A stretch of DNA of 64,000 nucleotides from a virus (IMGVR_UViG_3300037961_002813:32001-96000); one strand, 5' to 3'; shown: positions 12,154 to 56,597, counted from the stretch's first letter. Made by a program: numbers and translations. The notes: generated from the sequence alone by a model not told the origin.

Positions 12154-12455
12154 TCTTCATCCTCCGATTGTATTGAATGTAATACCTTAGATGTTGCCTC
12201 GGACATTTTCATAACTTGGATAGTTTCACCATCCTTGTAGCCATCTATCTCAACCTCACTCTCATGTTTGCGACCTGTAACAAGATTGAACTGACCAAGC
12301 ATGAACAGTATCCCGTTAGTCGTGTAACCTTTGTTGATATACTTCACTATCTTGTTACGCATGATTTCTTCCGCTTCCATCTGTGCATCAGTCACAATCT
12401 CGTTAAGTTCTTTCAGTGTTAATTTCACGCTAACAACTCCATCGCTTTGTTCCAT
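12150..12455 (-). CDS. Hypothetical protein
   Basis: 101 aa, ends in EDEE* at an ATGA junction. Confidence 0.55.
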   Translation of the reverse strand: MEQSDGVVSVKLTLKELNEIVTDAQMEAEEIMRNKIVKYINKGYTTNGILFMLGQFNLVTGRKHESEVEIDGYKDGETIQVMKMSEATSKVLHSIQSEDEE

Positions 12456-29241: not shown

Positions 29242-29321
29242 GATTTCAGTCCACCGTTTTTCAATATCAGTCTTGTTAGTGTGGGTGCATATACTTTGAG
29301 GCTAAAAGTATCTTCGCCACT

Positions 29322-29480
29322 ATGTTCAATGTTCAAAATGTTCATCGCCATGTTCACTAAAATGAATAGTCATGTATTCACTAACACCTATGATAATAAT
29401 ATATTATTTATCTTAGAGAGAGTGTGAGTATGAGTATGTTCATTTCTTTGAACAACACTATGAGCAAAGTGAACATTGAC
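29322..29480. repeat. Iteron-like element 1: TGTTCA/TATTCA direct repeats, AT core, inverted TGAACA
   Basis: atgttca four times in about 35 bp, an ataataatatattatt core, then tgaaca/gtgaaca. Confidence 0.6.
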
Positions 29481-31360: not shown

Positions 31361-31699
31361 ATGGTGGAGTATGACTTCTGTGATTGTTGTAGTCCTACCG
31401 AACTTGCTTTTGCAGTGATGAAAGCAAAGAAAAAGTCCAAGCCGTTTCACGGTTATAACCCAAATAGGCATCACCGAAAAGGTGGGCTAAACGCTAAAGG
31501 TAGGGCGGCGGCTAAGAGGAAAACCGGCGCAAACTTGAAGCCGCCTGTAACCACCAAACCGTCAAAACTCAAGCCCGGCTCTAAGAAAGCAAAGCGTCGT
31601 AAGTCTTTTTGTGCGAGAATGGGTGGTATGAAAGGGCCAACTTCTAAGAAGGGCAAATTGACACCAAAAGGTGCGGCATTGAAAAGGTGGAATTGTTAA
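31361..31699 (+). CDS. Basic phage protein (DUF6321-like)
   Basis: GGLNAKGRA...LKPPV...RRKSFCARM.GMKG...ALKRWNC. Confidence 0.75.
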   Translation: MVEYDFCDCCSPTELAFAVMKAKKKSKPFHGYNPNRHHRKGGLNAKGRAAAKRKTGANLKPPVTTKPSKLKPGSKKAKRRKSFCARMGGMKGPTSKKGKLTPKGAALKRWNC

Positions 31700-33043: not shown

Positions 33044-33220
33044 ATGAGTGTAGTTGAATTACTTGGATATTTTTTAGTAGCCGTTTTAGTAGGTTATGTT
33101 TGGGCTTGGTATATGATTGTTAATGAAAATACTACAGATTTTAAAGTATTTAATAGCGAAGAAGAAATAGAAGAATTCCATAAGTCTTGCTTCCACGGTA
33201 TGAGGAAGGGGATTGAATGA
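33044..33220 (+). CDS. Small single-pass membrane protein (58 aa)
   Basis: Manual translation MSVVELLGYFLVAVLVGYVWAWYMIV...; ATGA overlap with the lyase. Confidence 0.6.
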   Translation: MSVVELLGYFLVAVLVGYVWAWYMIVNENTTDFKVFNSEEEIEEFHKSCFHGMRKGIE

Positions 33221-34053
33221 AGGTAACCGTCTATGAGGTTGGCCCTCGTGACGGATTGCAAAATTTAAAACAATTTATACCGACTGAAATTAAAATAGGC
33301 TTGATTGATGAATTATACAAAGCCGGTTTAACTCATATTGAAGAAACATCATTTGCACATCCAAAGTATGTACCACAGATGGCTGATGCTGAAAATGTGT
33401 TTAACAAAGGTTCTGTGCTTGTAATGAACAAGCGTGGTCTTGATAGGGCGTTAAGTGTAGGTGCTGAAAAAATAAATATTGTATATTCACCATGTGAAGA
33501 GTTTAATATCAAAAATTTTGGTAAAACAAGAAGTGAATTAATCACAATGTACTACACAATGCTTAACGGAATACCTAAAGAAAATATAAGAGTCTACATT
33601 TCTATGGCGTTTGGGAGTCCGTATACCGGCGTAATATCGCCTAAAATGATGCGTTTATGTATAAAAGATGCAAAATTGTTGGGTAAAACGGTAGTTTTCT
33701 CGGATACCGTAGGTGCGGCTACAAAAGAGGAAGTAGCATTGTGGGCGGATATGGCGAAAGAGAATAATTTGAAAGCCGCTATTCATATTCATCATAACGG
33801 AGATGAACAAAAAGCAATTAGAACAGTAAAATATGCTTTATTGGAGGGTATTAGAGAAATAGACTCTAGTATAGGCGGTTTGGGTGGCTGTCCTTTCGTA
33901 CAGGAGAGTGGTGCTAACTTGTCTACTGAAACATTAGTACGACATTTGAATGTATGGGGTTTTGATTGCGGTATAACTGAAAGAAAATTACAACCGGCTT
34001 TAAAAATTGTAAGAGAAATAAAAGAACTTCAAGAGTTAATGTTAGTAAAATAG
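33217..34053 (+). CDS. hmgL: Hydroxymethylglutaryl-CoA lyase (DRE-TIM metallolyase)
   Basis: YEVGPRDGLQN, SFAHPKYVPQMAD, DTVG, HIH, SSIGGLGGCPF..GANLSTE. Confidence 0.92.
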   Translation: MKVTVYEVGPRDGLQNLKQFIPTEIKIGLIDELYKAGLTHIEETSFAHPKYVPQMADAENVFNKGSVLVMNKRGLDRALSVGAEKINIVYSPCEEFNIKNFGKTRSELITMYYTMLNGIPKENIRVYISMAFGSPYTGVISPKMMRLCIKDAKLLGKTVVFSDTVGAATKEEVALWADMAKENNLKAAIHIHHNGDEQKAIRTVKYALLEGIREIDSSIGGLGGCPFVQESGANLSTETLVRHLNVWGFDCGITERKLQPALKIVREIKELQELMLVK

Positions 34054-37868: not shown

Positions 37869-40780
37869 AACGGGGCAAAATAATTGTTAAACAAAGTCTA
37901 AGTGATGCATATAGGCAATACTTAGAGGATGTAACTATCCCAATGAATACTTATTTTGAAGCACCCGAAGAGTTTGTAACTACTAAACCATCTATTTATC
38001 ATTCATTAAGATTGCAACCTGCTACTGATGCAAGAACAGGTCGAATAAGAAATTCACCCGCAATAGCAAGAGCATTAGCAAGTATAGACAATTTACAATT
38101 TCAAGATGATATAAAAAATTTCTCGTTACCATTAAACACTAATCAAGGACAACCGCTATACGGTAGACATGTTTATCCCGGTGAGTTACATTCTTTAAGT
38201 CCTAATTTAACATCACATACATCAGTACCCGATTTACCAAGAACTTACATAAAAAGATGGGGTGGTGGAGAAAAGTACAGACCGCTTAATTTGTATGGTT
38301 TTACAGGTGATGCCGCTACTCCGCAAAGATTTACTAATCAAACATTACAACCGGAAGGAATAATTTACGGTAATTTAGATACAAATGATGTAGTACAACT
38401 AAACACTAGACCTGCTTCTGCAATTAGATTAAGTCAAGTAGCAAGAGCATTGTCACCGTTTCATCCCGAAAGAGATGTAAAAGATTTAACTGAACGCTCG
38501 GAAGATTTAGCAAGAGATATTATGGATGCGGGTATTCCACCAATATTAGCAGAATCTAATGTAGATACTAAAGGTGTAACTCAACATTTACCATTTAGAT
38601 TAGATAATAAAATAGATGTAAAGGAAGCACATGACCCATTTGTTCAATATGATATGGGTAATTTAAATCGCCCGACCCCGGAAGGACTTGAACAGTTTAC
38701 ACTTGATTCTATTAGAGCAGGTGAACCAATGGACATCGCTATGCAGTTGTTGAAAGAAGAGATACCATATAGCAGTAGAGATTATCCACCACAAGAAATT
38801 TCTATATCTACAGGTAATCCGCTTGTAACACCTAAAGTTGCAGGTGAAACACCCGAAGTTTGTAACATGCCGGGATGTGATTCGGGTCTACCTCCTGTGA
38901 TGTATAGAAGAATGGCTAATCCGATTAGAAGTATAGATAATCATGAATTTATGTGTGAGCAGTGCGCTTACAAACATGACTTACAATCATTACTTTTCGA
39001 TAAAATGATTAAAGGTGAAATAACTCTAATGGAATACGCTATACGAAAAGCCACTTTACCTACTTTACGAGAAGCAGGTTTAAGTTTTGAAGATTTAGAT
39101 GCTTTAAGATTTATTCCTAATTATCGTAAAACAAGTTTTTATCAACCACAACTATTAAACAAACCTGCTAACATAGATTATGAAATAAGAACTGCATCAA
39201 AAAAACCGGAATACAAAAGAATACCCGGATTACAAACAGAACTTGGACCACCACAAAATAATATACATTCTTATTTTGTAAACCCTGCAACACGCTTAGG
39301 TGCTTTAGGGGGAGATGTGACATTCATGGCTAGACCTACATTATTAGGTATTAGAAATAATAATAATAATTATGGAGTTGATTTTTGGAGGACTAAAAGA
39401 CAAGGGGCAGGTAGTGAAGGTGGAGAAGGTTTAATTTACGGTGAACTACCAAAACAAAATTTTGTAGAAATTCCAATAAATTATACTGCGGCTGATGCGA
39501 TGAGGGCTAAATTAAATTTAGACCACTTTATGAATACTTTTCACATACCGGAAGAAGAAGCATTTGAAATGTTAGCCACTAGATTTCCCGAAGTGCATAA
39601 TATAGCATCACAATTACCAAATGTAAATACTCAAGATACTTCATGGCAACAACCTGCACAATACAGGGGTACTAATCCATTACTCTTAGATGAGATAGAT
39701 ACAAAAGTAGCAAGCGAGCCAATGGATATTGCTATGCAGTTGTTGAAACAAGAACCTTTACAATTGAGAAATAGTGCTGAACTTGCCGAATTAGCAAGAC
39801 AAGGTGACACGGAAGCATACAATGAAATGATGGAAAGAACAGGTGATTATTACTTGGCTAATGAAATAACCGGAGAACCCGATATGGAGGCTAACTTAGA
39901 GGCTTACGGGGCTGAAACAGGTAAAAATCCATTTAAAACTCCCCCTATTGGGCGTACAAATCAAATTCAAATCCATCAACCTCCTGTGACTCCTATTCAT
40001 GCTGATAAAAAATTACATAATTGGCAATACAAAAACGCAAGTGAGCCGATGGAGATTGCTATGCAGTTGCTAAAGCGTGAATTACATCCCGGTAGAGATA
40101 TAGAGGGTTATCTAAAAGATGATGGACATTATGCCGGTGAAGAAGAACTTTACAATTTAAATGACCCCGAAGTACAAAATTTTGTAAATAGATTACATTT
40201 AGATAAACAACCACCCGTACATCTTATTCCCGAAACTTTAGGTATGGATTTAGAATATGTTGAGCCGGAGTTAAGAGTTGAAAATAGAGATACTAAGTTA
40301 TATCATCCTATTATGATGGATGAACATGAAAACTTAGATAAATTCCCCGATAGAAAAATAGTTGAAAGAGAAGATGGTACAAAAGAAGAACTAGTTTCTA
40401 CAAGCGACCCAACAAGTGATGTTGTTGGAGTTGGAAGAACAGGTCGTACTCTTGTATCTTCAAAACCTACATTTGAAGGTATACCATTTAGTGAAGAAAC
40501 AGGCTTTACCCGTAGCGAACCGATGGAGATTGCTATGCAACTACTCAAAGAGCGTGTAAGCCCCGAAGCCAAGCGACACAAGTTAGAGTATGATAAGAAG
40601 TATGAATCTTCACCGGAGAGAGTAAAATACCGTGAAGAATTAAACCGTGAGCGTAGGCGTAGACACATTATGGGTAGGGGTGGACCGGATATGAGCCACA
40701 CCAAAGACCATACCATTGTACCGGAAAGCCCTCATACTAATCGGGCAAGGCATTTTAAAGACAAAGGAACTCTTTTGTAA
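37865..40780 (+). CDS. Modular polyprotein-like protein: four EPM(D/E)IAMQLLK separators, C-terminal HNH-like module
   Basis: Repeats at 38723, 39716, 40043 and 40517; terminal DMSH...NRAR module. Confidence 0.8.
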   Translation: MKRGKIIVKQSLSDAYRQYLEDVTIPMNTYFEAPEEFVTTKPSIYHSLRLQPATDARTGRIRNSPAIARALASIDNLQFQDDIKNFSLPLNTNQGQPLYGRHVYPGELHSLSPNLTSHTSVPDLPRTYIKRWGGGEKYRPLNLYGFTGDAATPQRFTNQTLQPEGIIYGNLDTNDVVQLNTRPASAIRLSQVARALSPFHPERDVKDLTERSEDLARDIMDAGIPPILAESNVDTKGVTQHLPFRLDNKIDVKEAHDPFVQYDMGNLNRPTPEGLEQFTLDSIRAGEPMDIAMQLLKEEIPYSSRDYPPQEISISTGNPLVTPKVAGETPEVCNMPGCDSGLPPVMYRRMANPIRSIDNHEFMCEQCAYKHDLQSLLFDKMIKGEITLMEYAIRKATLPTLREAGLSFEDLDALRFIPNYRKTSFYQPQLLNKPANIDYEIRTASKKPEYKRIPGLQTELGPPQNNIHSYFVNPATRLGALGGDVTFMARPTLLGIRNNNNNYGVDFWRTKRQGAGSEGGEGLIYGELPKQNFVEIPINYTAADAMRAKLNLDHFMNTFHIPEEEAFEMLATRFPEVHNIASQLPNVNTQDTSWQQPAQYRGTNPLLLDEIDTKVASEPMDIAMQLLKQEPLQLRNSAELAELARQGDTEAYNEMMERTGDYYLANEITGEPDMEANLEAYGAETGKNPFKTPPIGRTNQIQIHQPPVTPIHADKKLHNWQYKNASEPMEIAMQLLKRELHPGRDIEGYLKDDGHYAGEEELYNLNDPEVQNFVNRLHLDKQPPVHLIPETLGMDLEYVEPELRVENRDTKLYHPIMMDEHENLDKFPDRKIVEREDGTKEELVSTSDPTSDVVGVGRTGRTLVSSKPTFEGIPFSEETGFTRSEPMEIAMQLLKERVSPEAKRHKLEYDKKYESSPERVKYREELNRERRRRHIMGRGGPDMSHTKDHTIVPESPHTNRARHFKDKGTLL

Positions 40781-40788
40781 TAGTCAAA

Positions 40789-40920
40789 TATTCACAATGT
40801 TCACTATGTTAGTCAATAAAATGACTATTCACTTTATTCACTACTCTCTAATAATAATATAATATATTTGTATAGTCAAAATAATGAACATGAATATGAA
40901 CAAAGTGAATATATGAATAG
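40789..40920. repeat. Iteron-like element 2: (TG/TA)TTCAC direct repeats, AT core, inverted TGAA(C/T)A
   Basis: tattcac/tgttcac four times, an ataataatataatatattt core, then tgaaca/tgaata five times. Confidence 0.65.
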
Positions 40921-40950
40921 AAATCTTTATATTGGCTATAAAATTGACCA

Positions 40951-41505
40951 ATGGTGAGCAACATGCAAGGTACAGGACAAGACTCGGATGCAGAAATAAG
41001 ATTGATGGGGTTGATTTTAGCCCAATCAGCGTTAGTAGGATTAGCAATAGGTGTGTTTGATGCAGACCTATGGTTGAAAAGTGAAACTCCTATGCTAAAT
41101 GGATTCACATACGCTATGGCCGCTTTCTTTGTACAAGGTATTGCTTATTATTTCTTTAAGATGTTCTTTGAACAGAATATGCAAGAAAGAGTAAGAGCAA
41201 CCGGTGTACAAAGGTCAAGAGATGCAAGATACAAACAAATGCAAATGAATTTTGATAACAGGAGAGTTGAGATGGAAATGCGAATGCAAGAAGCCCAACT
41301 TGAGCGTGAATTGCGTTGGATGGAAGCAAATCCCGGTAAAATGCCTCCAAGTTGGGGTGTACCGGGTGGTTCACAATCTATAGTTTCACAATATGATTCC
41401 GGTCAATTTAATCCCGGTATACCAAGTCATGAAGTTGAAGTAGACCAACCGATTAACTTAGGTATCAAAGAAGAGGAAGGAAAAGAGGAAAAGAAGAAAA
41501 AGTGA
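40951..41505 (+). CDS. Two-TM membrane protein with coiled coil
   Basis: Hydrophobic LMGLILAQSALVGLAIGVF and FTYAMAAFFVQGIAYYFF segments, then a charged helix. Confidence 0.75.
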   Translation: MVSNMQGTGQDSDAEIRLMGLILAQSALVGLAIGVFDADLWLKSETPMLNGFTYAMAAFFVQGIAYYFFKMFFEQNMQERVRATGVQRSRDARYKQMQMNFDNRRVEMEMRMQEAQLERELRWMEANPGKMPPSWGVPGGSQSIVSQYDSGQFNPGIPSHEVEVDQPINLGIKEEEGKEEKKKK

Positions 41506-41514
41506 GGTGGTTAG

Positions 41515-41757
41515 TTGGGTCGTATCTTCAAAACCCCTACTGATGATTCTACAGAAGCAACACTACGGGCTATGCATACTCAAAATATGTTAGACACATA
41601 TTATGAAAAAGGTGTTGGGTGGTTAAGAACTTTAATCTTTGTAATAATTGCAATCATGGCTACAAGTGCTTTTGAATTAAGAAGCGGTGATTCAATATGG
41701 GAAAATACTGTTGAATGGTTTTGGAATAAAGTAGAAAGTTGGGTAAGTGGTGATTAA
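41515..41757 (+). CDS. Single-TM membrane protein
   Basis: WLRTLIFVIIAIMATSAF; Trp-rich amphipathic C-terminus; SD GAGGTGG. Confidence 0.7.
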   Translation: MGRIFKTPTDDSTEATLRAMHTQNMLDTYYEKGVGWLRTLIFVIIAIMATSAFELRSGDSIWENTVEWFWNKVESWVSGD

Positions 41758-42474
41758 ATGGTCGAACCTGCCGGTACTGCTTTAGTTGGTGTTGCGGTAT
41801 GGGGGCAGAATCTATACAATTCTTGGAGACCAAGAAAAGTTGGAATATACGGTGCGGCTATGGTTGGTAAAACTACACTTGACCGCTATATGACTACACC
41901 GGGTGAAATGGAAGAAATACCCGATGAAGAAAGAACAAGTCACATGAGATTACTTGGAAAATATCTATTACCAAAACCTACTAGAAAGCGTATATCGTGG
42001 AAAGGAGATAGAAGAGTAGTATTTTCTGCTGACTTGGGTGGACAAGAAAGATTTTGGTCACTGTGGATAGACGATATGGTTGCTCGACAAGTAGAGGCTG
42101 TAGTATACATGTTTGATGAAAGAGCCTTCAAAGGCGGCGATGAAGCATTACAACAAATAGCCGGATTCAAATATTTAGTAGACTGTATAATTAATAGACA
42201 GTATAGGTATCGTAATCTCAAAAGTAGATGGAAGGGTAAAAAATATGTGCCAAAACTAGTAATGTTGGTTGCTAATAAAGCAGATAGATTTTTCGATGAG
42301 TCTGCCGCTATGCTTTGGCAACAAAACAGAATAGGAGAGCATAAGGTGTTTGACCCATTTAGAGATGATTTAGTTAGATTACAAAAAGCCGGAGTGCCTA
42401 CTAGAAGGTCATTCATGGCTACAAGAATAGGGTGGAATGTAGAAACCACATTAATAGATTTACTTTCTGCGTAG
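41758..42474 (+). CDS. Ras/Arf-superfamily small GTPase
   Basis: G1 GAAMVGKTT, G2 Thr candidate (ERT), G3 DLGGQERF, AVVYMFD, G4 ANKAD, G5-like MAT..G.NV. Confidence 0.88.
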   Translation: MVEPAGTALVGVAVWGQNLYNSWRPRKVGIYGAAMVGKTTLDRYMTTPGEMEEIPDEERTSHMRLLGKYLLPKPTRKRISWKGDRRVVFSADLGGQERFWSLWIDDMVARQVEAVVYMFDERAFKGGDEALQQIAGFKYLVDCIINRQYRYRNLKSRWKGKKYVPKLVMLVANKADRFFDESAAMLWQQNRIGEHKVFDPFRDDLVRLQKAGVPTRRSFMATRIGWNVETTLIDLLSA

Positions 42475-42479
42475 GTGAT

Positions 42480-42653
42480 ATGATGAATAAAAGAACAAAG
42501 ATAATAGCAGTGAATAAAAACACAAAGTGTGTAAGAACAGTTATACCTAATGCGATGGCTGAACTAATTAATGTTAAGGCCGGTGATGAAATTTCATGGG
42601 TACTAAAAACCGATAAAAATAAATTTTATCTCGAAGTAACTAAGGTGGAATAA
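42480..42653 (+). CDS. AbrB/SpoVT-like swapped-hairpin DNA-binding protein
   Basis: VRTVIPNAMAELINVKAGDEISW; ATG at 42480 after GGTGA. Confidence 0.75.
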   Translation: MMNKRTKIIAVNKNTKCVRTVIPNAMAELINVKAGDEISWVLKTDKNKFYLEVTKVE

Positions 42654-42654
42654 A

Positions 42655-43596
42655 ATGTATAATAGTGGCAATCAACCAAATCTAGGACAAGTAAACCAAG
42701 CACAACTCTTGGCATTAAGTCAGCAAGGTAATAATTCATTAACACACAGGGCGTTAATCGAACAAGCAACTGCACAAGCGGCTATGCAAGAAGCATCAAA
42801 GAAAACTGATTTACAAGTTCCTAAAGTAAACTTTTATCCAAGTCGTCATCCTAATCCTAACAAAGCAAGAAAGAAAGATATTAAACAGGCATATAAACTT
42901 CTTACACCTACTAAAAGAAGTATATTTAATCCGTTTAGGTTATTCTTTGGTAGAAAATACCGTTACAATAAGCAAAGTCATGTATGTGTAGTAGATGGTT
43001 GTGATTGTGCTAATTTAATTCAGTATGATAATTTATATGCTAAAATTTGCGATGAAGATACAGGAGATTCTTTGTGGGATTTGTATTGGAAAAATCCCGT
43101 AACAGGAGAGCCGGAAGCGTTTGTTGCGCTTGAAAAAGTCACTAGTGGTCGTAAAATGCGTGGTACATATTGCCCCGAACACATGCATTTGTATCATTTA
43201 CTTGTAAAATGGGAAGCAGAAGAAGATAAAATTAGTGAAGCGAATCCAAGAAGATTGAGAGATAGAGTCAAGAAAGGAGTATCTATTGTTACTGTTCCTA
43301 TTACAGCAATAAAGAAAAATGACCCTACACCGGAAATGCTAAAGAAATATGAGCCGTTTTTTGCCGAATTAGAAAAAGATGCAAGAAAAACTAAAGGAAT
43401 TAACATTCAGTATTATACTAATCCTATGACTAAACAAAACGATATTACAATTGTAAGTTTTGATTTAAGAATATTTCAGCATGAATTGGCTATGTTTAAT
43501 CAACCTACACCTGCTTTTCAAGCGATGTTAAACCAACAAGTAGAAGAAGTAGTTAATCAAAACACTAATTTGATAGATACCCTTCCGACGGAGTGA
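42655..43596 (+). CDS. Hypothetical Zn-binding protein
   Basis: CVVDGC...YCPEH; Q-rich N-terminus. Confidence 0.7.
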   Translation: MYNSGNQPNLGQVNQAQLLALSQQGNNSLTHRALIEQATAQAAMQEASKKTDLQVPKVNFYPSRHPNPNKARKKDIKQAYKLLTPTKRSIFNPFRLFFGRKYRYNKQSHVCVVDGCDCANLIQYDNLYAKICDEDTGDSLWDLYWKNPVTGEPEAFVALEKVTSGRKMRGTYCPEHMHLYHLLVKWEAEEDKISEANPRRLRDRVKKGVSIVTVPITAIKKNDPTPEMLKKYEPFFAELEKDARKTKGINIQYYTNPMTKQNDITIVSFDLRIFQHELAMFNQPTPAFQAMLNQQVEEVVNQNTNLIDTLPTE

Positions 43597-44216
43597 TAGA
43601 GATGTTTGGACTAAGTGGAAATAATCAAAATTCTAATACCTTAAACTTAGGTGTTCCATCTCAACAACCTATACAAACAGCCAATCCGTGGGCGCAACAA
43701 CAACAACCTAATCCGTTCATGGCAGGTTTATTTGGAGGACAACAACAAGCCAATCAATTTATGCAACAACCAATGCAACCACCAAGTGAGATAGAAATTC
43801 AAATGGAGTTATTAAAACAACAAGCAACTATTGAAAGATTTGTTGCAAGTAGTCAAATGGGAGTATTAATTGAAATGATGGGAAGTGTAGTTACTTTAAG
43901 TGTTTTAGAAATATTAAGAAATGCTACTTTTACACTCAACGAAGATGATGGCACTTTGCGTTTAGATACTACAACATTACCTGCTAATTTACAGACTATG
44001 AGTGCAGAAAATATAGCAAGTCAATTTACTAATTTACAAGCATCAGCACAACAAGTAGTCAATCAAAGTGAAATGACACAACAACAGTTAGCCGCATTAG
44101 CACAACAATCCATGATGGGTGGTGCTTTAGCGGCTTTACAAAGTGAAGGAGTTATGGAGAAAGTTGGAGGCGGAGTGGGAAGTTTCGCTCGTTCAATGCT
44201 AACAGGAGGAAGATAA
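43593..44216 (+). CDS. Gln-rich hypothetical protein
   Basis: 207 aa low-complexity ORF. Confidence 0.7.
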   Translation: MIEMFGLSGNNQNSNTLNLGVPSQQPIQTANPWAQQQQPNPFMAGLFGGQQQANQFMQQPMQPPSEIEIQMELLKQQATIERFVASSQMGVLIEMMGSVVTLSVLEILRNATFTLNEDDGTLRLDTTTLPANLQTMSAENIASQFTNLQASAQQVVNQSEMTQQQLAALAQQSMMGGALAALQSEGVMEKVGGGVGSFARSMLTGGR

Positions 44217-44217
44217 A

Positions 44218-44469
44218 ATGATGGATAAAGATTACTCAACATACATACCGCAATCGTTTGCCGCATCTACATTAGATGTACTGAATCCAAACAGAAGTGT
44301 GATAATAGATATGATAATGGTTCAAATTCTTTCTATGATTGTAGTTATGTCTATGATTTTAGTTTTCAAAGGTAGCACTATGCCTTCTTCTACAATATCA
44401 TACTTTTTAGTTGGTTTGTTTGCTAGTTTCCTTATGCTTAGTGGAGTCTATAGCCGTATCACTAGATGA
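44218..44469 (+). CDS. Small two-TM membrane protein (holin-like topology)
   Basis: IMVQILSMIVVMSMILVF and ISYFLVGLFASFLMLSGVY. Confidence 0.7.
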   Translation: MMDKDYSTYIPQSFAASTLDVLNPNRSVIIDMIMVQILSMIVVMSMILVFKGSTMPSSTISYFLVGLFASFLMLSGVYSRITR

Positions 44470-44732
44470 CGGCCATTTTCCTATAGGGCAACTTGAATTA
44501 AGTAAACTAATTTTAGTTTTAACAAAACACCCACACATATCACATCTTTTACCACCGAATTGACAAGAGTTGCAGATTTGCTCTCTTAACATTCTTAATT
44601 CGGGTGGAGTTTTATTATTGAGTGCTACATCTTTAGCGGCTCTCGTTAGACTTTTGAGAGTCTGCATATTTAGGGGAACACCCGCAACTCTTTTTGCTCT
44701 CCACATAGTACTTTCCAAGTTATTTTTCTCCA
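44407..44732 (-). CDS. Cys-rich protein (DUF6171-like)
   Basis: R..ICNSC...CDMCGCFV..K..L..SSCPIGKW; start uncertain. Confidence 0.65.
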
Positions 44733-44761
44733 TAAGCATTTTGTAAGGGATAGACATAAGC

Positions 44762-45448
44762 GTGTACATGCAGGAGGCGAATCGCATAGTGAAACGGTCC
44801 TGCAAACTTTGTACTAGTGACAGTAGAGATGAGATAGAAGAACAATTACTCAACGGTCATATTAGTCCAAAAGAAGTAGATAAAATGATGGGTTGGCGAG
44901 CCAATACTACTGATAGACACTTTCGTAATCACATGGGAGAATATCACATGGCGGCTAATCCATCTTGTCCTATTTGTGCAAGTCCTAAAAGAGCCGAATA
45001 TGAAAAAGAATATTTTGAAGGAAATGCTGATACTCACGCAATAGCAGAAGAATTAGGATGTGCTGAAAGAACAGTCTATAATCACATGAAACATCACTTC
45101 CAACCTTTAGTGCAGAAAACTGCGGCATACGAAGTAGCATTAGCGGCAGGTCAAGAAATACAATTACTGCGTTCTAATGCAGAAAAACTAAACAGTAAAC
45201 TAAGTGAATTACTAGATGAAGGTACAGTTCATGAAGATGGTTTTGTTCGTGATGCTGTTATTCTACACAAAGAAGTAAGAGAAACAGTAAAAGATTTACT
45301 TCGCTTCCAAGACCAATGGGGGGCTAAGACAGATAATCAACAAGTCAATCAAACTATCAATGTATTACAGATTGAACTTAGTAAAGAAAGCCCGGAAACT
45401 TGGACAAGAATTAGAAAGCAGTTGGCTGAAAATATGGGGGTAGAATAA
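44762..45448 (+). CDS. Putative terminase small subunit / tandem Zn-HTH DNA-binding protein
   Basis: Two CxxC...HTH...HxxxH units, then a helical region and QTINVL tail; upstream of TerL. Confidence 0.5.
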   Translation: MYMQEANRIVKRSCKLCTSDSRDEIEEQLLNGHISPKEVDKMMGWRANTTDRHFRNHMGEYHMAANPSCPICASPKRAEYEKEYFEGNADTHAIAEELGCAERTVYNHMKHHFQPLVQKTAAYEVALAAGQEIQLLRSNAEKLNSKLSELLDEGTVHEDGFVRDAVILHKEVRETVKDLLRFQDQWGAKTDNQQVNQTINVLQIELSKESPETWTRIRKQLAENMGVE

Positions 45449-47280
45449 TGCCAATGATGGGTCGAGGTTCGGATACAAGAATGTACTCGCCAAGAAGCGA
45501 GTCGGCTCACATGTATGGTTCGGCTAACGAAGATGGCGATAAATACAGTCCTACTTCTCCCGAAGATGCTGATAAGCGTAGGGAAGAAAAACAAAGAAAA
45601 GATGAGGAAAGAAAATCAAGACTAAAAGATATTAAACATATCAAAATAAAACCATCACAAGGATTAGGAAGTGGTCCTAAATTACCTACAGAAGAAGGAT
45701 TAGATGATGGTAACAAGCGTGATGATGAGCGTGAAATATCTCTTCAAGGTGGACCGGCAGGTAGTCGTGGACATTTACTTGACTTAGCCACAGGTGCAAA
45801 AACAGGCACAGGTTCAGCGATGGGTACAGGTAACTCCGCAGTTAGAACAGGCGAGCCGATGAAAGATGCTTGGTCTACATTATTGAAAGAAGATGATGAA
45901 TATAATTTTTCGGTAAATGATGTAATAAACACGCCTAGAGATACATGGTATAGCCAAATAATGGGAAGAGATACACCAATGGTTGATACTTTAGTAGATA
46001 GTGGAATAATGTTCGCTTTAGGATATGCTAATCACCATCATGGCGACCCCGAAACGATAAGTGATTTTCATGAAGAAGGTGTTAGTGTAGACAAAGCACT
46101 TGAAAATCTTATGAATCATAGAAATTCTTTGATGGTTTTAGATGCTAAAATGCAAGGTAAAGAACATACAATTCCGCAACAGTTTCATGATTATCACAAT
46201 GATTTTGGTATCACAAGGATGATGGAAGATTTAGGTGTACCACCGCATATACAAGCGGGGCAACATTTAGGATTATTATATTCTTATTTAAATTATCTTG
46301 GTTACAAAATCGGCCCTCAAATGGGTGAACCCGATGATGATTTTAACATGAAATATACAAGCGAACCGATGGATAATGCTTGGAGTGAATTACTAAAGCG
46401 TGATACTCCAAAGAAAATACAGGCTCGCCGTCGCCGTGAAGCAAGACAGGAGTTTAGACCATCTACCGGTCAATTCAAGAAACCTCCCGGCGGTCAATCC
46501 GGTGGTGCAGGTGCTACTATGCGTAGATTCAAAGCAAGAATGCGTGGTATCAAAGGTGGTAAAAGGACCGGTTTGATGAAGCCACATCTATCTGTGGAGA
46601 TGAGCCACCGTGGTATTGCTACTAAGCAACCTATGAGTAAAGACCCACAAAAGTATCGTCAATATATGGGGCAACAAGAAGCACAAAAAATCCTCGGTGG
46701 AGTAAGAAATACATTTTCACCTCACGCTAGACACAGTGCTAGAAGTTTCGTAGCCGGTCCTACCGGTGGTGGTAGACTAACAGGTATGTTACCGGGTCAA
46801 GCGGGTCAAATGAGACAACCATCTTTAACTAGATTAGGTAGACCACGCAGACCTCGTATGCCTCGTATGCCTCGTATGCCAAGACCACCAATGCCACCAC
46901 AAATGCCTATGATGCCACCTGCACCTCCTGTACCTATCATGACAAGTGAAGATACTCCTTCGCAAATTATGATGAGTAGTGATAGAACTGAAAGTGAGAT
47001 TCTAAAAGCAAATAGACATGCTAGAAAATTAGAGATGTTAGAATTAATGCGTAGATTAATTGATTTACAAAAGAAAAGAAATAAATTAATGAAATATGTT
47101 CAAGGGGGAGGTTCTGCTTTTGAAAACGGTCATGTACCCACTCACCCTGCCGGTGTTCAACAACACGAAGATGAAGATGAGAAAAATGATGGACCAACAC
47201 AGAATTTAGAAACTAATTCAAGTCGTTTAGGTCTTGACCCTGCGGGGCATCTATCCGGTAAGAGGGGGCATTTCGGTTGA
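45448..47280 (+). CDS. Modular hypothetical protein with two EPMxxAWxxLLK tags
   Basis: Tags at 45853 and 46363 bracket an acidic module; followed by basic and PRM-repeat regions. Confidence 0.75.
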   Translation: MPMMGRGSDTRMYSPRSESAHMYGSANEDGDKYSPTSPEDADKRREEKQRKDEERKSRLKDIKHIKIKPSQGLGSGPKLPTEEGLDDGNKRDDEREISLQGGPAGSRGHLLDLATGAKTGTGSAMGTGNSAVRTGEPMKDAWSTLLKEDDEYNFSVNDVINTPRDTWYSQIMGRDTPMVDTLVDSGIMFALGYANHHHGDPETISDFHEEGVSVDKALENLMNHRNSLMVLDAKMQGKEHTIPQQFHDYHNDFGITRMMEDLGVPPHIQAGQHLGLLYSYLNYLGYKIGPQMGEPDDDFNMKYTSEPMDNAWSELLKRDTPKKIQARRRREARQEFRPSTGQFKKPPGGQSGGAGATMRRFKARMRGIKGGKRTGLMKPHLSVEMSHRGIATKQPMSKDPQKYRQYMGQQEAQKILGGVRNTFSPHARHSARSFVAGPTGGGRLTGMLPGQAGQMRQPSLTRLGRPRRPRMPRMPRMPRPPMPPQMPMMPPAPPVPIMTSEDTPSQIMMSSDRTESEILKANRHARKLEMLELMRRLIDLQKKRNKLMKYVQGGGSAFENGHVPTHPAGVQQHEDEDEKNDGPTQNLETNSSRLGLDPAGHLSGKRGHFG

Positions 47281-50647: not shown

Positions 50648-52135
50648 ATGAGTGAAAACATGGAACAGTTTATCCTAGATATGGATAGAAAGATGGCTGA
50701 AAAGTCATTTAAGTTCTTTTTCACAGATATACTTGGTTTTCATTACAGTACCCATCATGAAATGTGGGATAAAGGATTGAAAGAAAATCGTTACTACTGC
50801 GTTAAAGCGAGTCGTGACCACGGTAAATCCACTTTGTTTATGTCGTATGCTCTATGGATAGCCGCTTTCAATCCCGGTACTCACATCATGATTTTCTCAC
50901 ACTCATTAGAACAGACACTTGAACACATGAGATTTATTCGTAATAACATAGAAAGTGCTGATATTCTAAGAGGTTTGAAGCCCGACCAAGGTAGACCTTG
51001 GGCTAAATCATACTTCGAGTTCACTAACGGTAGCCGTATCATGGCTAAGTCGGTTGGTGGTGCTACTCGTGGTTTCCACCCCGATGTAGTAGTATGTGAT
51101 GACATCTTGTGGGGTACTACAGGTGGAGAGTTACAAAGAGCCGCCGATTGGTTCTATGGTGTATTACTTCCGGTACTGCACCACACAGCACGATTGATGA
51201 TGGTTGGTACACCGTTTAGTTACAATGACTTGTATGCTGAACTTGAAGAAAAAGAAACATTTGCTGTAGAAACATATCCTGCTATCAATGCGGAAGGTAT
51301 AGCACTTTGGCCGGAAAGATGGAATCTTGAGGCACTTGAACAAAGGCGATTATCAATGCCCGCTATACAATTTAGCCGTGAGTATCTGTGTGAACCTATC
51401 CACGATGTAGCGAGTATGTTCCCTGCTACTATACTTGAGGCGGCTCGTGATAAAGAGTTAGTGCTTCTTGATAGGGCTGATACTGAATTCGATGAAGAGG
51501 GTAATCCGGCAGGGGTATTTGGACAGCACTTTATCGGATGGGATACAGCGATTGCTTCCGATAAGAACGCTGACTATACCGCTATGTTAGTACTAAGAAC
51601 ACCACCGGGTGATAATATCAAAGAAATAGTTGGTATTGTACACGAAAAAGGTCTTGGTGGTGCGGCACAGAAAAAACAAATTTTACTGTTAAATAACAGG
51701 TTTCAACCCGATTTGATTGAACTTGAAGGTAACAACTTTCAGCGTATGTTTGCGGCTGAACTTCAAGACATGAGAGGGGATATTCCTATTCGCACATTTA
51801 TGACAACACGCCAAAGAAAAGAAAGTATGTTCATGTCACTTCTTATGGCGTTTGAGCAAGGACAAATAAAAACTCCATACGGTGATGAGCGAAGTCGTGA
51901 ATTTACACATAAGTTAGAATCCGAGTTAAACAGATTTGGTATGCAGAAGAATGGCAAACTAGAATCTGTAGGAACTCACGATGACTTGGCTATGGCATTG
52001 GCTTTGGCTAATTGGGGAACAAAAGAATTCAAGGGTTCAGTAGTATTACTTGATGATGTATTACCGGGCTTTGATGAGTGGATAACAGGGAAACCACACA
52101 GAAATTATGGAAAAAATGATTGGGTGATACCGTGA
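50648..52135 (+). CDS. terL: Terminase large subunit
   Basis: Walker A ASRDHGKS, RGFHPD plus Walker B VVCDD, GTP coupling motif, nuclease IGWD...D and HDDLAMALALA. Confidence 0.95.
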   Translation: MSENMEQFILDMDRKMAEKSFKFFFTDILGFHYSTHHEMWDKGLKENRYYCVKASRDHGKSTLFMSYALWIAAFNPGTHIMIFSHSLEQTLEHMRFIRNNIESADILRGLKPDQGRPWAKSYFEFTNGSRIMAKSVGGATRGFHPDVVVCDDILWGTTGGELQRAADWFYGVLLPVLHHTARLMMVGTPFSYNDLYAELEEKETFAVETYPAINAEGIALWPERWNLEALEQRRLSMPAIQFSREYLCEPIHDVASMFPATILEAARDKELVLLDRADTEFDEEGNPAGVFGQHFIGWDTAIASDKNADYTAMLVLRTPPGDNIKEIVGIVHEKGLGGAAQKKQILLLNNRFQPDLIELEGNNFQRMFAAELQDMRGDIPIRTFMTTRQRKESMFMSLLMAFEQGQIKTPYGDERSREFTHKLESELNRFGMQKNGKLESVGTHDDLAMALALANWGTKEFKGSVVLLDDVLPGFDEWITGKPHRNYGKNDWVIP

Positions 52136-53499: not shown

Positions 53500-54810
53500 T
53501 TGGTGGTCATTATGTGGGGTAGTGCTTTACTAGGTGATGAGTACGACCTCGCTGTACAACCTGCTGATGATTTAACAAAAAGCGTTTTATCGAATTTATC
53601 ACAGCATCCCGAATTTACAGTTACTACAGCCCCTATAGAAAAATCATCAAGTTTGTTTTCTAATGACGATATTAAATCGTATAGTTTTGCACCTAACGGT
53701 GATGGGTGGTTAGAGAGTACATACGGTAAAGACGCTAACTCAATAATTCGTATGTGTAGAAAAATGCGAAGATTAGATAAAGATAATCGTGAAAGTATTG
53801 ATGCAATCATTGATGACATTCGCACAATAAAATCTATGGAAATAGAAGCCACTATTGGTAATCTTTCATGGAGTGAAGGTTTAGAAGATGTAATAAAAAA
53901 TATAGGTCTTAATGATAGAAGCCTAAAAGCACTTCGTAAATTCGGTGAATCTCGTTCATCTTCTTTACAAAAAGCATGTCAATTGTATCTTAAATCTATG
54001 ACCGTATTGAATTTATTAAATGAAAAGTTAGATTGGGGAGTTGATGACCAAAAAGAATGGGCTAATGCTTTACAGTTGAAAAAAGATGCTCGTAAAATGT
54101 GGTCTAACACTTTGCATCAAATTGATAGTATATCAAAAACAGATAAAGCAACTCTTAATTTTATTTCCGATGAATTAACAAAATCCGGTCCACTTAGTAG
54201 TCGTGAGTTAGTTCGTAGAGGTGTTGGAACTATATCTAAATCTGTTACCCCTACAAAGGTAGGTATGCTATTGAAAATGTACGGTGAAGAGATAGATATT
54301 TACAAAAGTAACAGTAGAGGTGACTTTGTAAAAATTAATTCTCATGGTTTAATTATCAAAGATATATGGGCTTATGCCGCAGGTTTTCTTGATGCTGACG
54401 GTAGTATATTCATAACAGAAAGGGGCGAACCAAGAGCGACATTTATCGCTACAGGTGATAGGGGTCGTATGCAGTGTGAAGAGTTACACAAAGCACTAGG
54501 TTGCGGTAGATTAGTTCTAAATCAAAGAATACATAAAAACAGTGTCCGAAGCCAACACCGACTCATATTCTCATCAAAAAATGATTTAAGGCAATTATTG
54601 AAAGGTATATTACCCCATTTAAAAATGAAATCGTTGCAAGCAAAGGCTGTTTTATCCTTTGTAGATGAAAAAGATAAGATGAGAAAAGACGAATTGTATC
54701 GTGTTGTTACATATAACAATTGGAAAGACGACAAGAAAAAGGCCGATAGTTTCTTGAGTAAATGGGGCGTGGATGCAGATACAATAGGTAATTATGCGGA
54801 GAGTTTGTAA
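53500..54810 (+). CDS. Protein with C-terminal LAGLIDADG domain
   Basis: YAAGFLDADGSIFI...ILPHLKMK..QA; about 280 aa helical N-terminal extension. Confidence 0.8.
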   Translation: MVVIMWGSALLGDEYDLAVQPADDLTKSVLSNLSQHPEFTVTTAPIEKSSSLFSNDDIKSYSFAPNGDGWLESTYGKDANSIIRMCRKMRRLDKDNRESIDAIIDDIRTIKSMEIEATIGNLSWSEGLEDVIKNIGLNDRSLKALRKFGESRSSSLQKACQLYLKSMTVLNLLNEKLDWGVDDQKEWANALQLKKDARKMWSNTLHQIDSISKTDKATLNFISDELTKSGPLSSRELVRRGVGTISKSVTPTKVGMLLKMYGEEIDIYKSNSRGDFVKINSHGLIIKDIWAYAAGFLDADGSIFITERGEPRATFIATGDRGRMQCEELHKALGCGRLVLNQRIHKNSVRSQHRLIFSSKNDLRQLLKGILPHLKMKSLQAKAVLSFVDEKDKMRKDELYRVVTYNNWKDDKKKADSFLSKWGVDADTIGNYAESL

Positions 54811-56597
54811 TGGCAGATGATGAAAGTAGAATTAGTCGGTTTCTTTCGACATTGAGTAAACCCTTCAAGCGTAAGTCATCACCAACCCCGACTATGCCGC
54901 TTTGGACAAGTGGTATACAAGAACCTGTAATGGCACAGGGTATCACGATACCTGCTCTTTATGCAGTAAGCACAGAATGTTTGATTCTAAGAACCGTACT
55001 TTCTAAATTAAGACAAGAGATGTTTAGAAGAGGATACTATTGGGAAAAGAAGTTCCATAAGAAATGTGTTCAGTGCGATGAAGAATATCAACACGATGTA
55101 CAAGTATGTGAAACATGCGGTGGGGAAGTTAGAGGACCGGATAACGAAGAATTAGTATATGCTAAGTGGTTACTCAAACAAGAAAATAGTATGGAACAAC
55201 AGTTCTTACATGTTCTACATGAGATTGAAAATGACCTAAATATTGTAGATGACGCATTTATGATATTTGTAAAAGAGTATTATATTGACCCGGAAACAAA
55301 AGAGGTCGCATTTTATCGTGTAAAAGAAATGATTAGAGGTGACCCTATATTTATGAGAATAGTTGCTGATAAAAGAGGGGTAAGAGGTGGTCGTTACAAG
55401 ACTTGTTTAATTCACCGTGACCAAGTAAAAACACACGCAGAAGATGATAAGTGCGAAGTTTGTGGTAGCGATTTACACGATGTACACTATGTAAACATGG
55501 CAGGTAGTGGTAAAACACAATACTTCGTTGAAGGTGAAGTACTCCATGTCAGTAAATATAATCCATCTAAATTATATGGCCGTTCTCCTGTCAATACAAT
55601 GTGGCGACAAGCCATGACATTAACAGCGATGGATAACTACATGTATACTGCTTATCAAAAGCGTAGAATGCCTAAAGGTATTATTTCTGTTACAACCGAC
55701 AATCTTGAATCAATGAAGTCATTTTGGAAGTCAGTAGATGAAAAAATGGAGAGAGACCCCCACTATGTACCTAAAGTTGGTATTGAATCTAATACCGGTA
55801 GAGGTGGTGTCAATTGGGTTAAATTCATGGATACCCTAGAAGAGATGCAATATATTGCTGTCCGTGATGAAATAAGAAATCGAATTGCCGCTTATTTTGG
55901 TGTATCAAGTATATTTATGGTAGACAATGGTAAGTCCGGTGGTCTTAACAACGAAGGTCTACAGATTCTTGTTACTAATCGTGCAGTAGAGTTTGGACAA
56001 AAAATTTACACTGATGTTTTATTCCCTAAGATTCTAAAACAAATGGGAGTGTTTGATTGGAAATTAACACTATATCCAAACGAAGAAGAAGATGAAATTA
56101 CAAGACTACGCCGTGATGAGCAAGAGTTGAATGTAGCACAAAGAATGGCTCAACTCGGTTTCGTGCCGGAATTGATTAGTGGTGATACAAGTAACGACAT
56201 TAAATTTGTTTATCGTAAACCTAAACCCGAAGAACAACAAGGCGCACCACCTCCGGGTGGCGCACCACCAATGATGCCACCGGGTGGAGGAAGAATGCCT
56301 CCGGGTATGCCAATGGGTGGTATGCCTCCGGGTATGCCAATGGGTGGTATGCCACCGGGTATGCCAATGAGAGGTATGCCTCCGGGTATGCCAATGGGTA
56401 ACATGCCAATGCCACCTCCACAACCGGGTGGTCAAGGTGTAGGAATACGCAACCGTGGTCCTGCCGCACCCGAAAGAAGAACCTCACCGGGTAGTGGTGC
56501 GCCTGTAACAAGTGTACAACAAAGAGGACCACCACCATCACTTGGACAGCAGAATGTAAACACCATGCAGAATGCTCGAAGATTTAGAGGTGCATAA
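54810..56597 (+). CDS. Portal protein
   Basis: EVLHV...LYGRSP, PKGII, EMQY...RNRIAAYFGV...N.E portal pattern; lies between TerL and the protease. Confidence 0.88.
   Translation: MADDESRISRFLSTLSKPFKRKSSPTPTMPLWTSGIQEPVMAQGITIPALYAVSTECLILRTVLSKLRQEMFRRGYYWEKKFHKKCVQCDEEYQHDVQVCETCGGEVRGPDNEELVYAKWLLKQENSMEQQFLHVLHEIENDLNIVDDAFMIFVKEYYIDPETKEVAFYRVKEMIRGDPIFMRIVADKRGVRGGRYKTCLIHRDQVKTHAEDDKCEVCGSDLHDVHYVNMAGSGKTQYFVEGEVLHVSKYNPSKLYGRSPVNTMWRQAMTLTAMDNYMYTAYQKRRMPKGIISVTTDNLESMKSFWKSVDEKMERDPHYVPKVGIESNTGRGGVNWVKFMDTLEEMQYIAVRDEIRNRIAAYFGVSSIFMVDNGKSGGLNNEGLQILVTNRAVEFGQKIYTDVLFPKILKQMGVFDWKLTLYPNEEEDEITRLRRDEQELNVAQRMAQLGFVPELISGDTSNDIKFVYRKPKPEEQQGAPPPGGAPPMMPPGGGRMPPGMPMGGMPPGMPMGGMPPGMPMRGMPPGMPMGNMPMPPPQPGGQGVGIRNRGPAAPERRTSPGSGAPVTSVQQRGPPPSLGQQNVNTMQNARRFRGA

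Follow-up and report, generated by a model that had tools for sequence, protein, structure and literature searches.

A divergent Arf/Sar1-like small GTPase and a conserved five-gene block in a magrovirus-type virus of marine archaea

Why should a tailed virus of archaea carry a small GTPase that resembles the Arf/Sar1 type, and carry it among genes for small membrane proteins? The question is raised by IMGVR_UViG_3300037961_002813:32001-96000, a stretch of viral DNA of 64,000 nucleotides (nt), given as one strand and hereafter called the window, in which positions 40951-44469 hold a compact run of genes that includes the GTPase. We treat the window as part of a magrovirus-type tailed virus, about 100 kb in size, of Marine Group II archaea (Poseidoniales). 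Magroviruses are among the most abundant viruses of the surface ocean; how tailed archaeal viruses exit the cell is, to our knowledge, not known at all. Eukaryotic vesicle traffic begins with switches of the Arf/Sar1 type, which carry an N-terminal membrane helix, and only recently have such switches been shown to act on archaeal membranes, as in the cases of ArvA and the Asgard ArfR proteins. A first-pass annotation of the window had proposed a GTPase-timed lysis or egress module. The claim that the evidence carries is narrower: the GTPase stands for a new family, and the cassette of five genes is conserved.

The GTPase and its relatives

The open reading frame (ORF) in question and its signature elements are as follows, with motif boundaries given for the window copy.

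41758-42474, + strand: GTPase, 238 residues, a divergent Arf/Sar1-like small GTPase by its motifs, AlphaFold2 (AF2) model, family profile and hhalign comparisons
41767-41826, + strand: N-terminal helix of the GTPase, residues 4-23, from DSSP on the AF2 model
41851-41874, + strand: G1 or P-loop, GAAMVGKT, residues 32-39
42031-42045, + strand: G3 and start of switch II, DLGGQ, residues 92-96, followed by ERFWSLW (Arf-type DxGGQ...LW)
42274-42285, + strand: G4, NKAD, the guanine-specificity motif, residues 173-176
Residues 220-229 of the GTPase: G5-like segment, MAT..GWNVE

We collected 99 distinct full-length GTPase sequences from 165 loci. G1, G3 and G4 (NKxD) are intact and in order in all of them (99/99), and stop codons interrupt none (0/99). 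Across 25 family rows of 31-95% identity (alignment A5), the invariant positions include the motif residues G32, G37, K38, T40, D92, G95, N173, K174 and D176, and further R59, T60, H62, W103, D106, M107, R110, D120, R122 and H195. Switch II displays the DxGGQ pattern followed by a conserved Trp (DLGGQERFWSLW), with D92, G95 and W103 among the invariant residues. The AF2 model is confident, with a predicted local distance difference test (pLDDT) score of 88.8 and a predicted template-modeling (pTM) score of 0.86. It consists of the N-terminal helix and a complete G domain with the six-stranded Rossmann-like fold, ends about 10 residues past G5, and, as a static model, resembles GTP-bound Arfs. 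The first-pass identification of a Ras/Arf-like GTPase with G1, G3, G4 and G5-like motifs is thus borne out, and the ORF almost certainly encodes a real GTP-binding switch.

The residue after DxxG, the catalytic Gln of Ras and Arf, is Q in 67/99 sequences and is replaced in the remaining 32/99, by E in 18-20, by D in 8-9 (9 if one AGD sequence is counted) and by H in 3. An insert that follows helix alpha-1 contains the invariant R59, T60 and H62, which could be a source of catalysis in cis.

About 25 residues precede strand beta-1 in every full-length member. The first half of this N-terminal helix is hydrophobic and rich in small residues; the second is basic and amphipathic, its hydrophobic moment (muH) being 0.32-0.59 across the family. 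By hydropathy it is both too short and too polar to span the membrane. An amphipathic helix ahead of beta-1 is a hallmark of the Arf family, and Sar1 and Arf carry an N-terminal membrane helix of similar layout. The hydrophobic, Arf/Sar1-like extension noted at first pass is therefore a family trait, found in all full-length members. By analogy with Sar1, Arf and ArvA we infer that the helix is a membrane- or partner-binding anchor, and on balance we favor the view that the GTPase is a membrane-associated switch.

Several comparisons bear on the placement of the protein within the Ras superfamily. 1) When the family profile was run against the sequences of the Protein Data Bank (PDB), the best match was GerdArfR1 (8OUN; E 1.4e-5), with the N-terminal extension inside the alignment, followed by Arl8 (1e-4 to 4e-4) and then Rab33 and Ras; the identity of 8OUN as an Asgard GerdArfR1 is confirmed in bioRxiv 10.1101/2024.02.28.582541. 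2) In a within-genome panel, made of the 39 small GTPases of one Asgard metagenome-assembled genome (MAG) that are positive with the Arf hidden Markov model (HMM), the viral profile picked out five proteins at E<=10, four of which are the three genuine ArfRs and a further protein recognized by the Arf HMM (E 0.02-2.5). 3) With hhalign the three ArfRs reached a probability of 95-96%, and a Rab-like protein from that Asgard genome 86%, an uneven comparison of three sequences with one. 4) The closest structural neighbors of the AF2 model are Arf-family chains, which consistently score above SR-beta. 5) Beyond the family itself, the look-alikes retrieved with a protein language model are bacterial clusters with partial Arf Pfam labels, which we take as a lead only. 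These lines agree, each of them being modest, and together they support a position nearest the Arf/Sar1 branch. We read the protein as the representative of a new family that is specific to viruses and falls, within the Ras superfamily, on the side of Arf, Sar1 and SR-beta; it is not a member of the Pfam Arf family. Membership of the Roc family was considered separately and rejected, on account of sub-threshold matches and the lack of a COR domain.

The family is large and its members are well conserved. At E<=1e-3 it comprises 457 clusters in a set of 5.8 billion proteins, nearly all of 238 residues and about 80% identical, some of them bearing the Joint Genome Institute (JGI) automatic label 'GTPase SAR1 family protein'. 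A phmmer search against 1.84 billion representatives at 50% identity returned only 78 matches, which, down to about 30% identity, look like members of the family or pieces of them; among these the GTPase has no close cellular relative. Neither Arf matches nor Arf/Ras-type small GTPases were found in 61 sampled Poseidoniales genomes, many of them incomplete, in which the Ras HMM gave weak matches solely inside GTPases of 374 or 670 residues. The protein is accordingly not nested among host housekeeping GTPases. Recent capture from the host was weighed as an origin and rejected on these two grounds, the lack of a close cellular relative and the lack of a small GTPase in the host-order genomes.

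Gene order and conservation of the cassette

The GTPase is the third of seven tightly packed ORFs, all on the + strand, and each lies exactly where it had first been annotated. The region upstream of the run and the six other genes are:

40780-40950, + strand: upstream non-coding region with four to five direct (T)ATTCAC repeats, an AT-rich core with ATAATAATAT, and inverted TGAAYA repeats
40951-41505, + strand: TMcc, 184 residues, by hydropathy a hairpin of two transmembrane (TM) segments and then a basic coiled-coil-like tail, predicted to be cytoplasmic
41515-41757, + strand: TM80, 80 residues, a single-pass membrane protein whose stop codon abuts the GTPase ATG
42480-42653 (ATG, 57 residues, the likelier start) or from 42432 (GTG, 73 residues), + strand: AbrB/MazE-like ORF
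42655-43596, + strand: Zn313, a Cys/His protein of 313 residues, directly 3' of the GTPase and overlapping it in distant clades
43593-44216, + strand: Q207, 207 residues, Gln/Met/Gly-rich at the N-terminus and Gly-rich at the C-terminus, with a conserved domain between them
44218-44469, + strand: tm83, 83 residues, with two TM segments by hydropathy

Only 9 nt separate TMcc from TM80 and 0 nt separate TM80 from the GTPase, and Zn313 and Q207 overlap by 4 nt. We followed this arrangement by tblastn of the window proteins against 80 loci found through the GTPase and a second set of 80 loci found through Zn313. In the roughly 80 GTPase loci, order and strand are uniform: a 971-residue protein, TMcc, TM80, the GTPase, the AbrB-like ORF where present, Zn313, Q207 and tm83. 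The series continues with a DUF6171 ORF (where present, and on the opposite strand), a helix-turn-helix (HTH) protein, and proteins of 610 and 729 residues. Gaps between cassette genes in these related loci are of a few bases or are replaced by overlaps. The core of TMcc, TM80, GTPase, Zn313 and Q207 is kept in more than 150 viral loci. Approached from the other end, through Zn313, the GTPase is found upstream in 72/72 of the loci that have enough upstream sequence.

The same core persists at far greater distance. In five loci in which the GTPase is 31-40% identical to that of the window (L081, L084, L088, L089 and L090), all five genes are kept, with sizes of 148-272 residues for TMcc, 72-79 for the one-TM protein, 256-329 for the Cys/His protein and 202-272 for the Gln-rich protein. 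The Cys/His gene overlaps the GTPase stop codon in three of the five. The flanks of these distant clades differ: a thermosome-subunit gene lies upstream in three of the five, and downstream there is a protein of 808-846 residues in L081 and L090 and several small membrane-protein genes in L084. The conservation of the cluster across divergent relatives, which the first-pass annotation had named as a check, is therefore confirmed for a five-gene core. So is the tight coupling that it had seen between the GTPase, a two-TM coiled-coil protein and a one-TM protein: TMcc and TM80 each occur in 79/80 loci and in all five distant ones. Its list of downstream genes needs to be divided. The Zn protein and the Q-rich protein belong to the core, Q207 being present in 80/80 loci and 5/5 distant loci. 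The AbrB-like ORF (in 30/80 and 33/80 related loci, and absent from the distant clades) and the holin-sized tm83 (kept in the window clade and the L088/L089 clade, with no recognizable counterpart in L081, L084 and L090) are accessory, because neither is kept in all clades. The position of the cluster upstream of the packaging genes holds in the window, and is not a conserved trait, the distant clades having the chaperonin gene as neighbor.

Of all genes in the block the GTPase is conserved best, with a median identity of 75% against 46-67% for its neighbors. Pairwise identities of the four cassette proteins that were aligned correlate, with Spearman coefficients of 0.74-0.90; this fits inheritance as a unit, and common descent alone would give it too. 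We hold that the five genes very probably constitute a functional cassette.

The partner proteins are themselves distinctive. TMcc, TM80, Zn313 and Q207 match no Pfam, PHROG or NCBIfam family, and Q207 has no look-alike in Atlas. In TMcc, hydropathy gives a stronger TM segment at about residues 15-40 and a weaker one at about 51-73, and the layout is identical in the distant-clade versions. Most TMcc homologs share a conserved C-terminal peptide, LKKDGTPD(K/L)RYK (alignment A3), which the window copy lacks, having a Lys-rich tail in its place. TM80 combines a conserved N-terminal segment, MGRIFKTPxDDSxE, predicted to be cytoplasmic, with a Trp-rich C-terminal one. The 'Zn' of Zn313 is a label derived solely from the invariant or near-invariant C111, C173, H176 and H181. 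The central domain of Q207 includes a hydrophobic helix or stretch at residues 86-110 (hydropathy). The AbrB call is a sub-threshold Pfam match to MazE/SpoVT-AbrB (E 3.6e-4; 20.8 bits, the cut-off being 24.7).

The upstream non-coding region, whose repeat element lies at 40780-40920, is probably the promoter/operator of the cassette. A TATA-like TTTATAT lies about 20 nt 5' of the first cassette ATG, and a twin of the element, with direct (T)ATTCAC repeats, an AT-rich core and an inverted repeat, is found at 29318-29480. The two may be a shared operator or promoter rather than an origin, because one of them directly precedes the first cassette gene. A promoter and terminator scan gave counts at the level of shuffled sequence, with a sigma-70 model that is unsuited to archaeal promoters. 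A marine metatranscriptome contains a 164-nt contig identical to 41831-41994, inside the GTPase gene, and pieces of the Q207, 610-residue, 729-residue and TerL genes, the coverage being of small pieces only.

The left half of the window is transcribed leftward, with genes for a family-B DNA polymerase (PolB), an SNF2 helicase and a tyrosine-phosphatase-like protein, and the right half rightward, with the genes for the large terminase subunit (TerL) and the portal. Known Magrovirales genomes are 90-110 kb in size, with opposed replication and morphogenesis blocks (PMC12999244; PMC5434244). Our assignment of the window to a magrovirus-type virus follows because its gene layout fits Magrovirales, because IMG/VR contigs carrying relatives of the GTPase reach 85-108 kb, and because one distant locus, L089 (CACGHY010000002.1), is a 106-kb contig with the cassette in the Poseidoniales single-cell genome AG-422-I20. 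The defining traits of the order are thus all found: a tailed-virus morphogenesis module, a PolB-based replication module of its own, opposed blocks, genome size and a Poseidoniales host, the last two in relatives. L089, a magrovirus-sized contig inside the single-cell genome of the presumed host, also provides a direct, if anecdotal, link between virus and host. The remaining 'genome' matches to the GTPase are viral-looking contigs binned into unrelated MAGs. The DNA and proteins of the cassette have no match in the phage collection, and TerL matches there at about 28% identity and no closer. Other features of the window, including the immediate flank of the cassette, are:

44407-44853, - strand: Cys-rich ORF of 148 residues (Pfam DUF6171, E 2e-4; phrog_13558, E 8.4e-11)
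44762-45448: protein of 228 residues that contains a GerE/HTH-like segment (Pfam E 6e-4) and two pairs of Cys residues, and ends in a coiled coil
50648-52135: TerL, downstream of the cassette
54810-56597: portal gene, downstream of the cassette
12425-13426: DUF932 protein (1.4e-46)
24730-25761: tyrosine-phosphatase-like protein (E 1e-4)
31361-31699: DUF6321 protein (5.8e-17)
33217-34053: HMGL-like protein of the HMG-CoA lyase family (Pfam 2e-20)

The 148-residue ORF overlaps the end of the tm83 gene and the annotated start of the 228-residue HTH gene, and its presence in 44-60/80 related loci gives it the look of an inserted accessory gene. The HTH protein itself, kept in 80/80 loci, has a weak PHROG match to small terminase subunits (E 1.4e-3) and may, from these resemblances, be a TerS or a late regulator. 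The cassette is flanked by the 971- and 610-residue proteins, which share a helical peptide that may be a docking or processing motif: (S/G)EPM(D/E)IAMQLLK in four copies in the former (38723-38755, 39716-39748, 40043-40075 and 40517-40549), and the related EPM(K/D)(D/N)AWS(T/E)LLK in two copies in the latter (45853-45888 and 46363-46398).

Possible roles of the cassette

We favor an account in which the GTP-bound state would expose the 25-residue hydrophobic/amphipathic N-terminal helix of the GTPase, and the exposed helix would dock the protein on the cytoplasmic face of the host membrane. The docking platform would be the two co-translated membrane proteins, namely the TMcc hairpin with its basic coiled-coil tail and the Trp-rich TM80, while Zn313 and Q207 might serve as regulator (akin to a GTPase-activating protein, GAP, or a guanine-nucleotide exchange factor, GEF) and/or effector. 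The five genes would then encode a viral machine that acts on membranes and is switched by nucleotide; they share their direction of transcription with the morphogenesis genes, and the likeliest purpose of the machine would be the remodeling or breaching of the host membrane late in infection, for release. In this account we infer membrane binding, contact among the cassette proteins, the regulator and effector roles, when the machine acts and what it achieves. Taken in its entirety, and without a full commitment as to purpose, it is the best explanation that we can offer, and we would give it a probability of about 0.45. A complex prediction for the GTPase with TMcc, TM80 and GTP returned an ipSAE of 0.00 in both runs, which were made without controls, and weighs neither for nor against binding.

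A number of observations count against this account. On the side of the GTPase, no curated model of Pfam, NCBIfam or PHROG reaches threshold: Pfam Arf (PF00025) scores 10.8 bits against a cut-off of 22.3, Pfam Roc (PF08477) 17.9 against 27, NCBIfam small_GTP gives E 0.084 and the PHROGs nothing. Member by member the Pfam matches, all sub-threshold, go to Roc in 21/25 and to Arf in 5/25 (best Arf E 5.7e-4). The G2 Thr is ambiguous, T60 being invariant but 15 residues ahead of beta-2, and T75 aligning with the switch-I Thr of Arf but not being invariant; hhalign matches T60 with the ETR of ArvA. The helix of the window copy is only moderately amphipathic (muH 0.22-0.43) and is modeled less confidently than the core (pLDDT 53-71). 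The replacement of the catalytic Gln in about a third of the members fits poorly with a simple intrinsic hydrolysis timer and argues against one. On the side of the cassette, Zn313 and Q207 resemble nothing known, so that to cast them as regulator and effector is guesswork. The relatives all come from a single virus group, and gene order therefore partly reflects common descent. The metatranscriptome matches are a weak hint of transcription, from a library that may contain DNA. Finally, neither a lysis enzyme nor a link to a known egress system was found.

Release nevertheless appears as the most attractive end effect, because the block runs in the late direction, encodes several small membrane proteins and is accompanied by no other egress genes that we could see. 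The first-pass remark that no endolysin is visible agrees with our scan, since no lysis enzyme or lytic-enzyme family occurs in the 39 window ORFs compared with Pfam, the remaining ORFs lying outside it. The proposal of a GTPase-timed lysis or egress system does not fare as well: nothing that we computed shows lysis, egress or timing, and the variable Gln speaks against the timer. We regard egress or lysis, as the purpose of the cassette, as doubtful. A bolder form of the idea is that an ancient virus-specific switch of Arf/Sar1 type, with membrane-hairpin partners, might bend, vesiculate or cut the archaeal membrane, as a GTPase-driven release or compartment system that differs from known egress of prokaryotic viruses, in a host order that seems to be without ArvABC. 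This would be a long shot; if true, viruses of archaea would have been carriers of Arf-like membrane machinery beyond the Asgard archaea.

Among the alternatives, the cassette might act as a helper of virion assembly or packaging, organizing capsid or tail assembly or DNA packaging near the membrane without remodeling or breaching it. It does lie in the rightward block with TerL and portal, between two large proteins that have a repeated peptide in common and may be virion or cargo proteins, and in distant clades it adjoins a chaperonin gene. The flanks, however, change between clades while the cassette does not, and the link to the packaging genes is thus not conserved. There is also no precedent in the morphogenesis of known tailed viruses: we know of no Caudoviricetes assembly pathway in which a Ras-type GTPase takes part or small integral membrane proteins are required. 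We consider this role unlikely.

The cassette could also take over the host surface, by superinfection exclusion, receptor masking or decoy vesicles, for the sake of competition and not of release. In bacteriophages, exclusion is often the work of small membrane proteins of the virus. Overexpression of an ArvA-type GTPase raises vesicle output (PMC10927574), and neither ArvB nor small GTPases were found in the sampled host order, so that the virus could be the source of this capacity. OapB/ArvB (PF09846) was found in 0/61 of the Poseidoniales genomes, with a model that worked on control and Thermoplasmatota genomes, 74/151 of the latter being positive; within its phylum, Poseidoniales may be a group without the ArvABC vesiculation system. 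Exclusion genes, on the other hand, are usually variable or accessory, whereas the GTPase is the most conserved gene of its neighborhood and is kept across clades, which renders this possibility improbable.

It may further be asked whether the genes are neighbors by shared ancestry only, with the GTPase working by itself on some host target in the cytosol, and the membrane proteins being unrelated to it. All loci come from one viral lineage, in which correlated divergence is expected from common descent alone. Against this, even where GTPase identity is down to 31-40% and the flanks are rearranged, the five genes form an unbroken series in constant order, most of them overlapping or touching, and the Zn313 search recovers the GTPase every time; we judge mere neighborhood highly improbable. 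That the GTPase is an SR-beta-like targeting factor, membrane-anchored and inserting viral membrane proteins or docking ribosomes or cytosolic machinery, is barely credible, given that Arf-family chains outrank SR-beta consistently, that no SRX-like or SRP-related partner is encoded nearby and that the hydrophobic core at the N-terminus falls short of the length of a TM span.

The account of a nucleotide-switched, membrane-acting machine thus stays in front, and it has a practical side. A conserved viral Arf-like switch with its own membrane proteins and no counterpart in the sampled host genomes is a concrete five-gene target for heterologous expression, and the cassette is a candidate mechanism for the interplay between archaeal viruses and membranes.

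Comparison with known systems

The word 'GTPase' was not found in the magrovirus papers examined (main texts, and the supplements of PMC10160649), and literature searches turned up no virus-encoded Arf-like GTPase of archaea. We found no paper that describes the GTPase family or the five-gene cassette; the type of switch is itself already known.

Holin cassettes of tailed phages share with the viral cassette the presence of several small proteins with one or two TM segments in a compact late-direction block, and tm83 has a holin-like size and topology, as far as its sequence tells. The viral cassette differs in that no endolysin or spanin was found in the scanned ORFs and tm83 is not kept in all clades, and we know of no described holin system that includes a GTPase. 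The small GTPases of giant viruses, such as the mimivirus Rab (PDB: 5XC5), are recognizable recent captures of host Rab families, unlike the present GTPase, which belongs to a tailed virus that infects prokaryotes and has neither a close cellular relative nor a host homolog in the sampled genomes. From the SR-beta system the viral cassette is set apart by the absence of an SR-alpha/SRX partner, by an anchor shorter than a TM helix and by the higher scores of Arf chains.

The nearest functional precedent in archaea is ArvA, which resembles the viral GTPase in kind without belonging to its family. ArvA is an archaeal small GTPase with an N-terminal amphipathic helix that drives the formation of extracellular vesicles in Haloferax, and its operon partner ArvC, a Zn-ribbon protein, is a proposed GAP (PMC10927574); the vesicle work is cited in an egress review (PMC10791045). 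ArvA/ArvB/ArvC (OapABC) and the viral cassette have in common the N-terminal helix and a compact operon that includes a Zn-type protein. For the comparison we took the genes adjacent to OapB at eight Thermoplasmatota loci, seven of which passed a P-loop/NKxD filter. ArvA and the viral GTPase are alike in a (V/I)GIYGxxxxGKTTL P-loop region and the IPxE-R/T insert that follows. The hhalign local probability is 92.5% over the N-terminal 47 columns only, and the global alignment misplaces G3. Beyond that region the two part: G3 of ArvA is DTPG in an Era-like body, as against the Arf-type DLGGQ of the viral protein, and ArvA operons code for no TM proteins, whereas the viral cassette does. Likewise, no ArvB (DUF2073, PF09846) or ArvC (DUF2072) domain was found in any cassette protein at Pfam E<=1.

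The Arf family (Arf1/Arf6, Arl1/Arl3/Arl8 and Sar1, with ArfR 8OUN/8OUM and HodArfR1 8OUK) shares with the viral GTPase the G-domain fold and the N-terminal helix before beta-1, at about 16-20% identity between the viral protein and Arf-family chains. The viral switch II, DxGGQ-x-x-F-W-x-L-W, is of the Arf/Arl8 type, the aromatic-x-x-LW being common to both. As in Sar1, there is no lipidation signal, and three members have GGH, again as in Sar1. Unlike Arf, the viral GTPase has 1) about 16-25 extra residues behind helix alpha-1, among them an invariant R-T-x-H, 2) longer alpha-3/loop and G4-G5 regions, giving 238 residues against about 180, and 3) E or D in place of the Gln in about a quarter of the members. 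It thereby adds a new data point on the spread of Arf-like machinery outside eukaryotes and Asgard archaea, that of a switch coded by a tailed archaeal virus and tied to integral membrane proteins, not to coat or GEF/GAP families.

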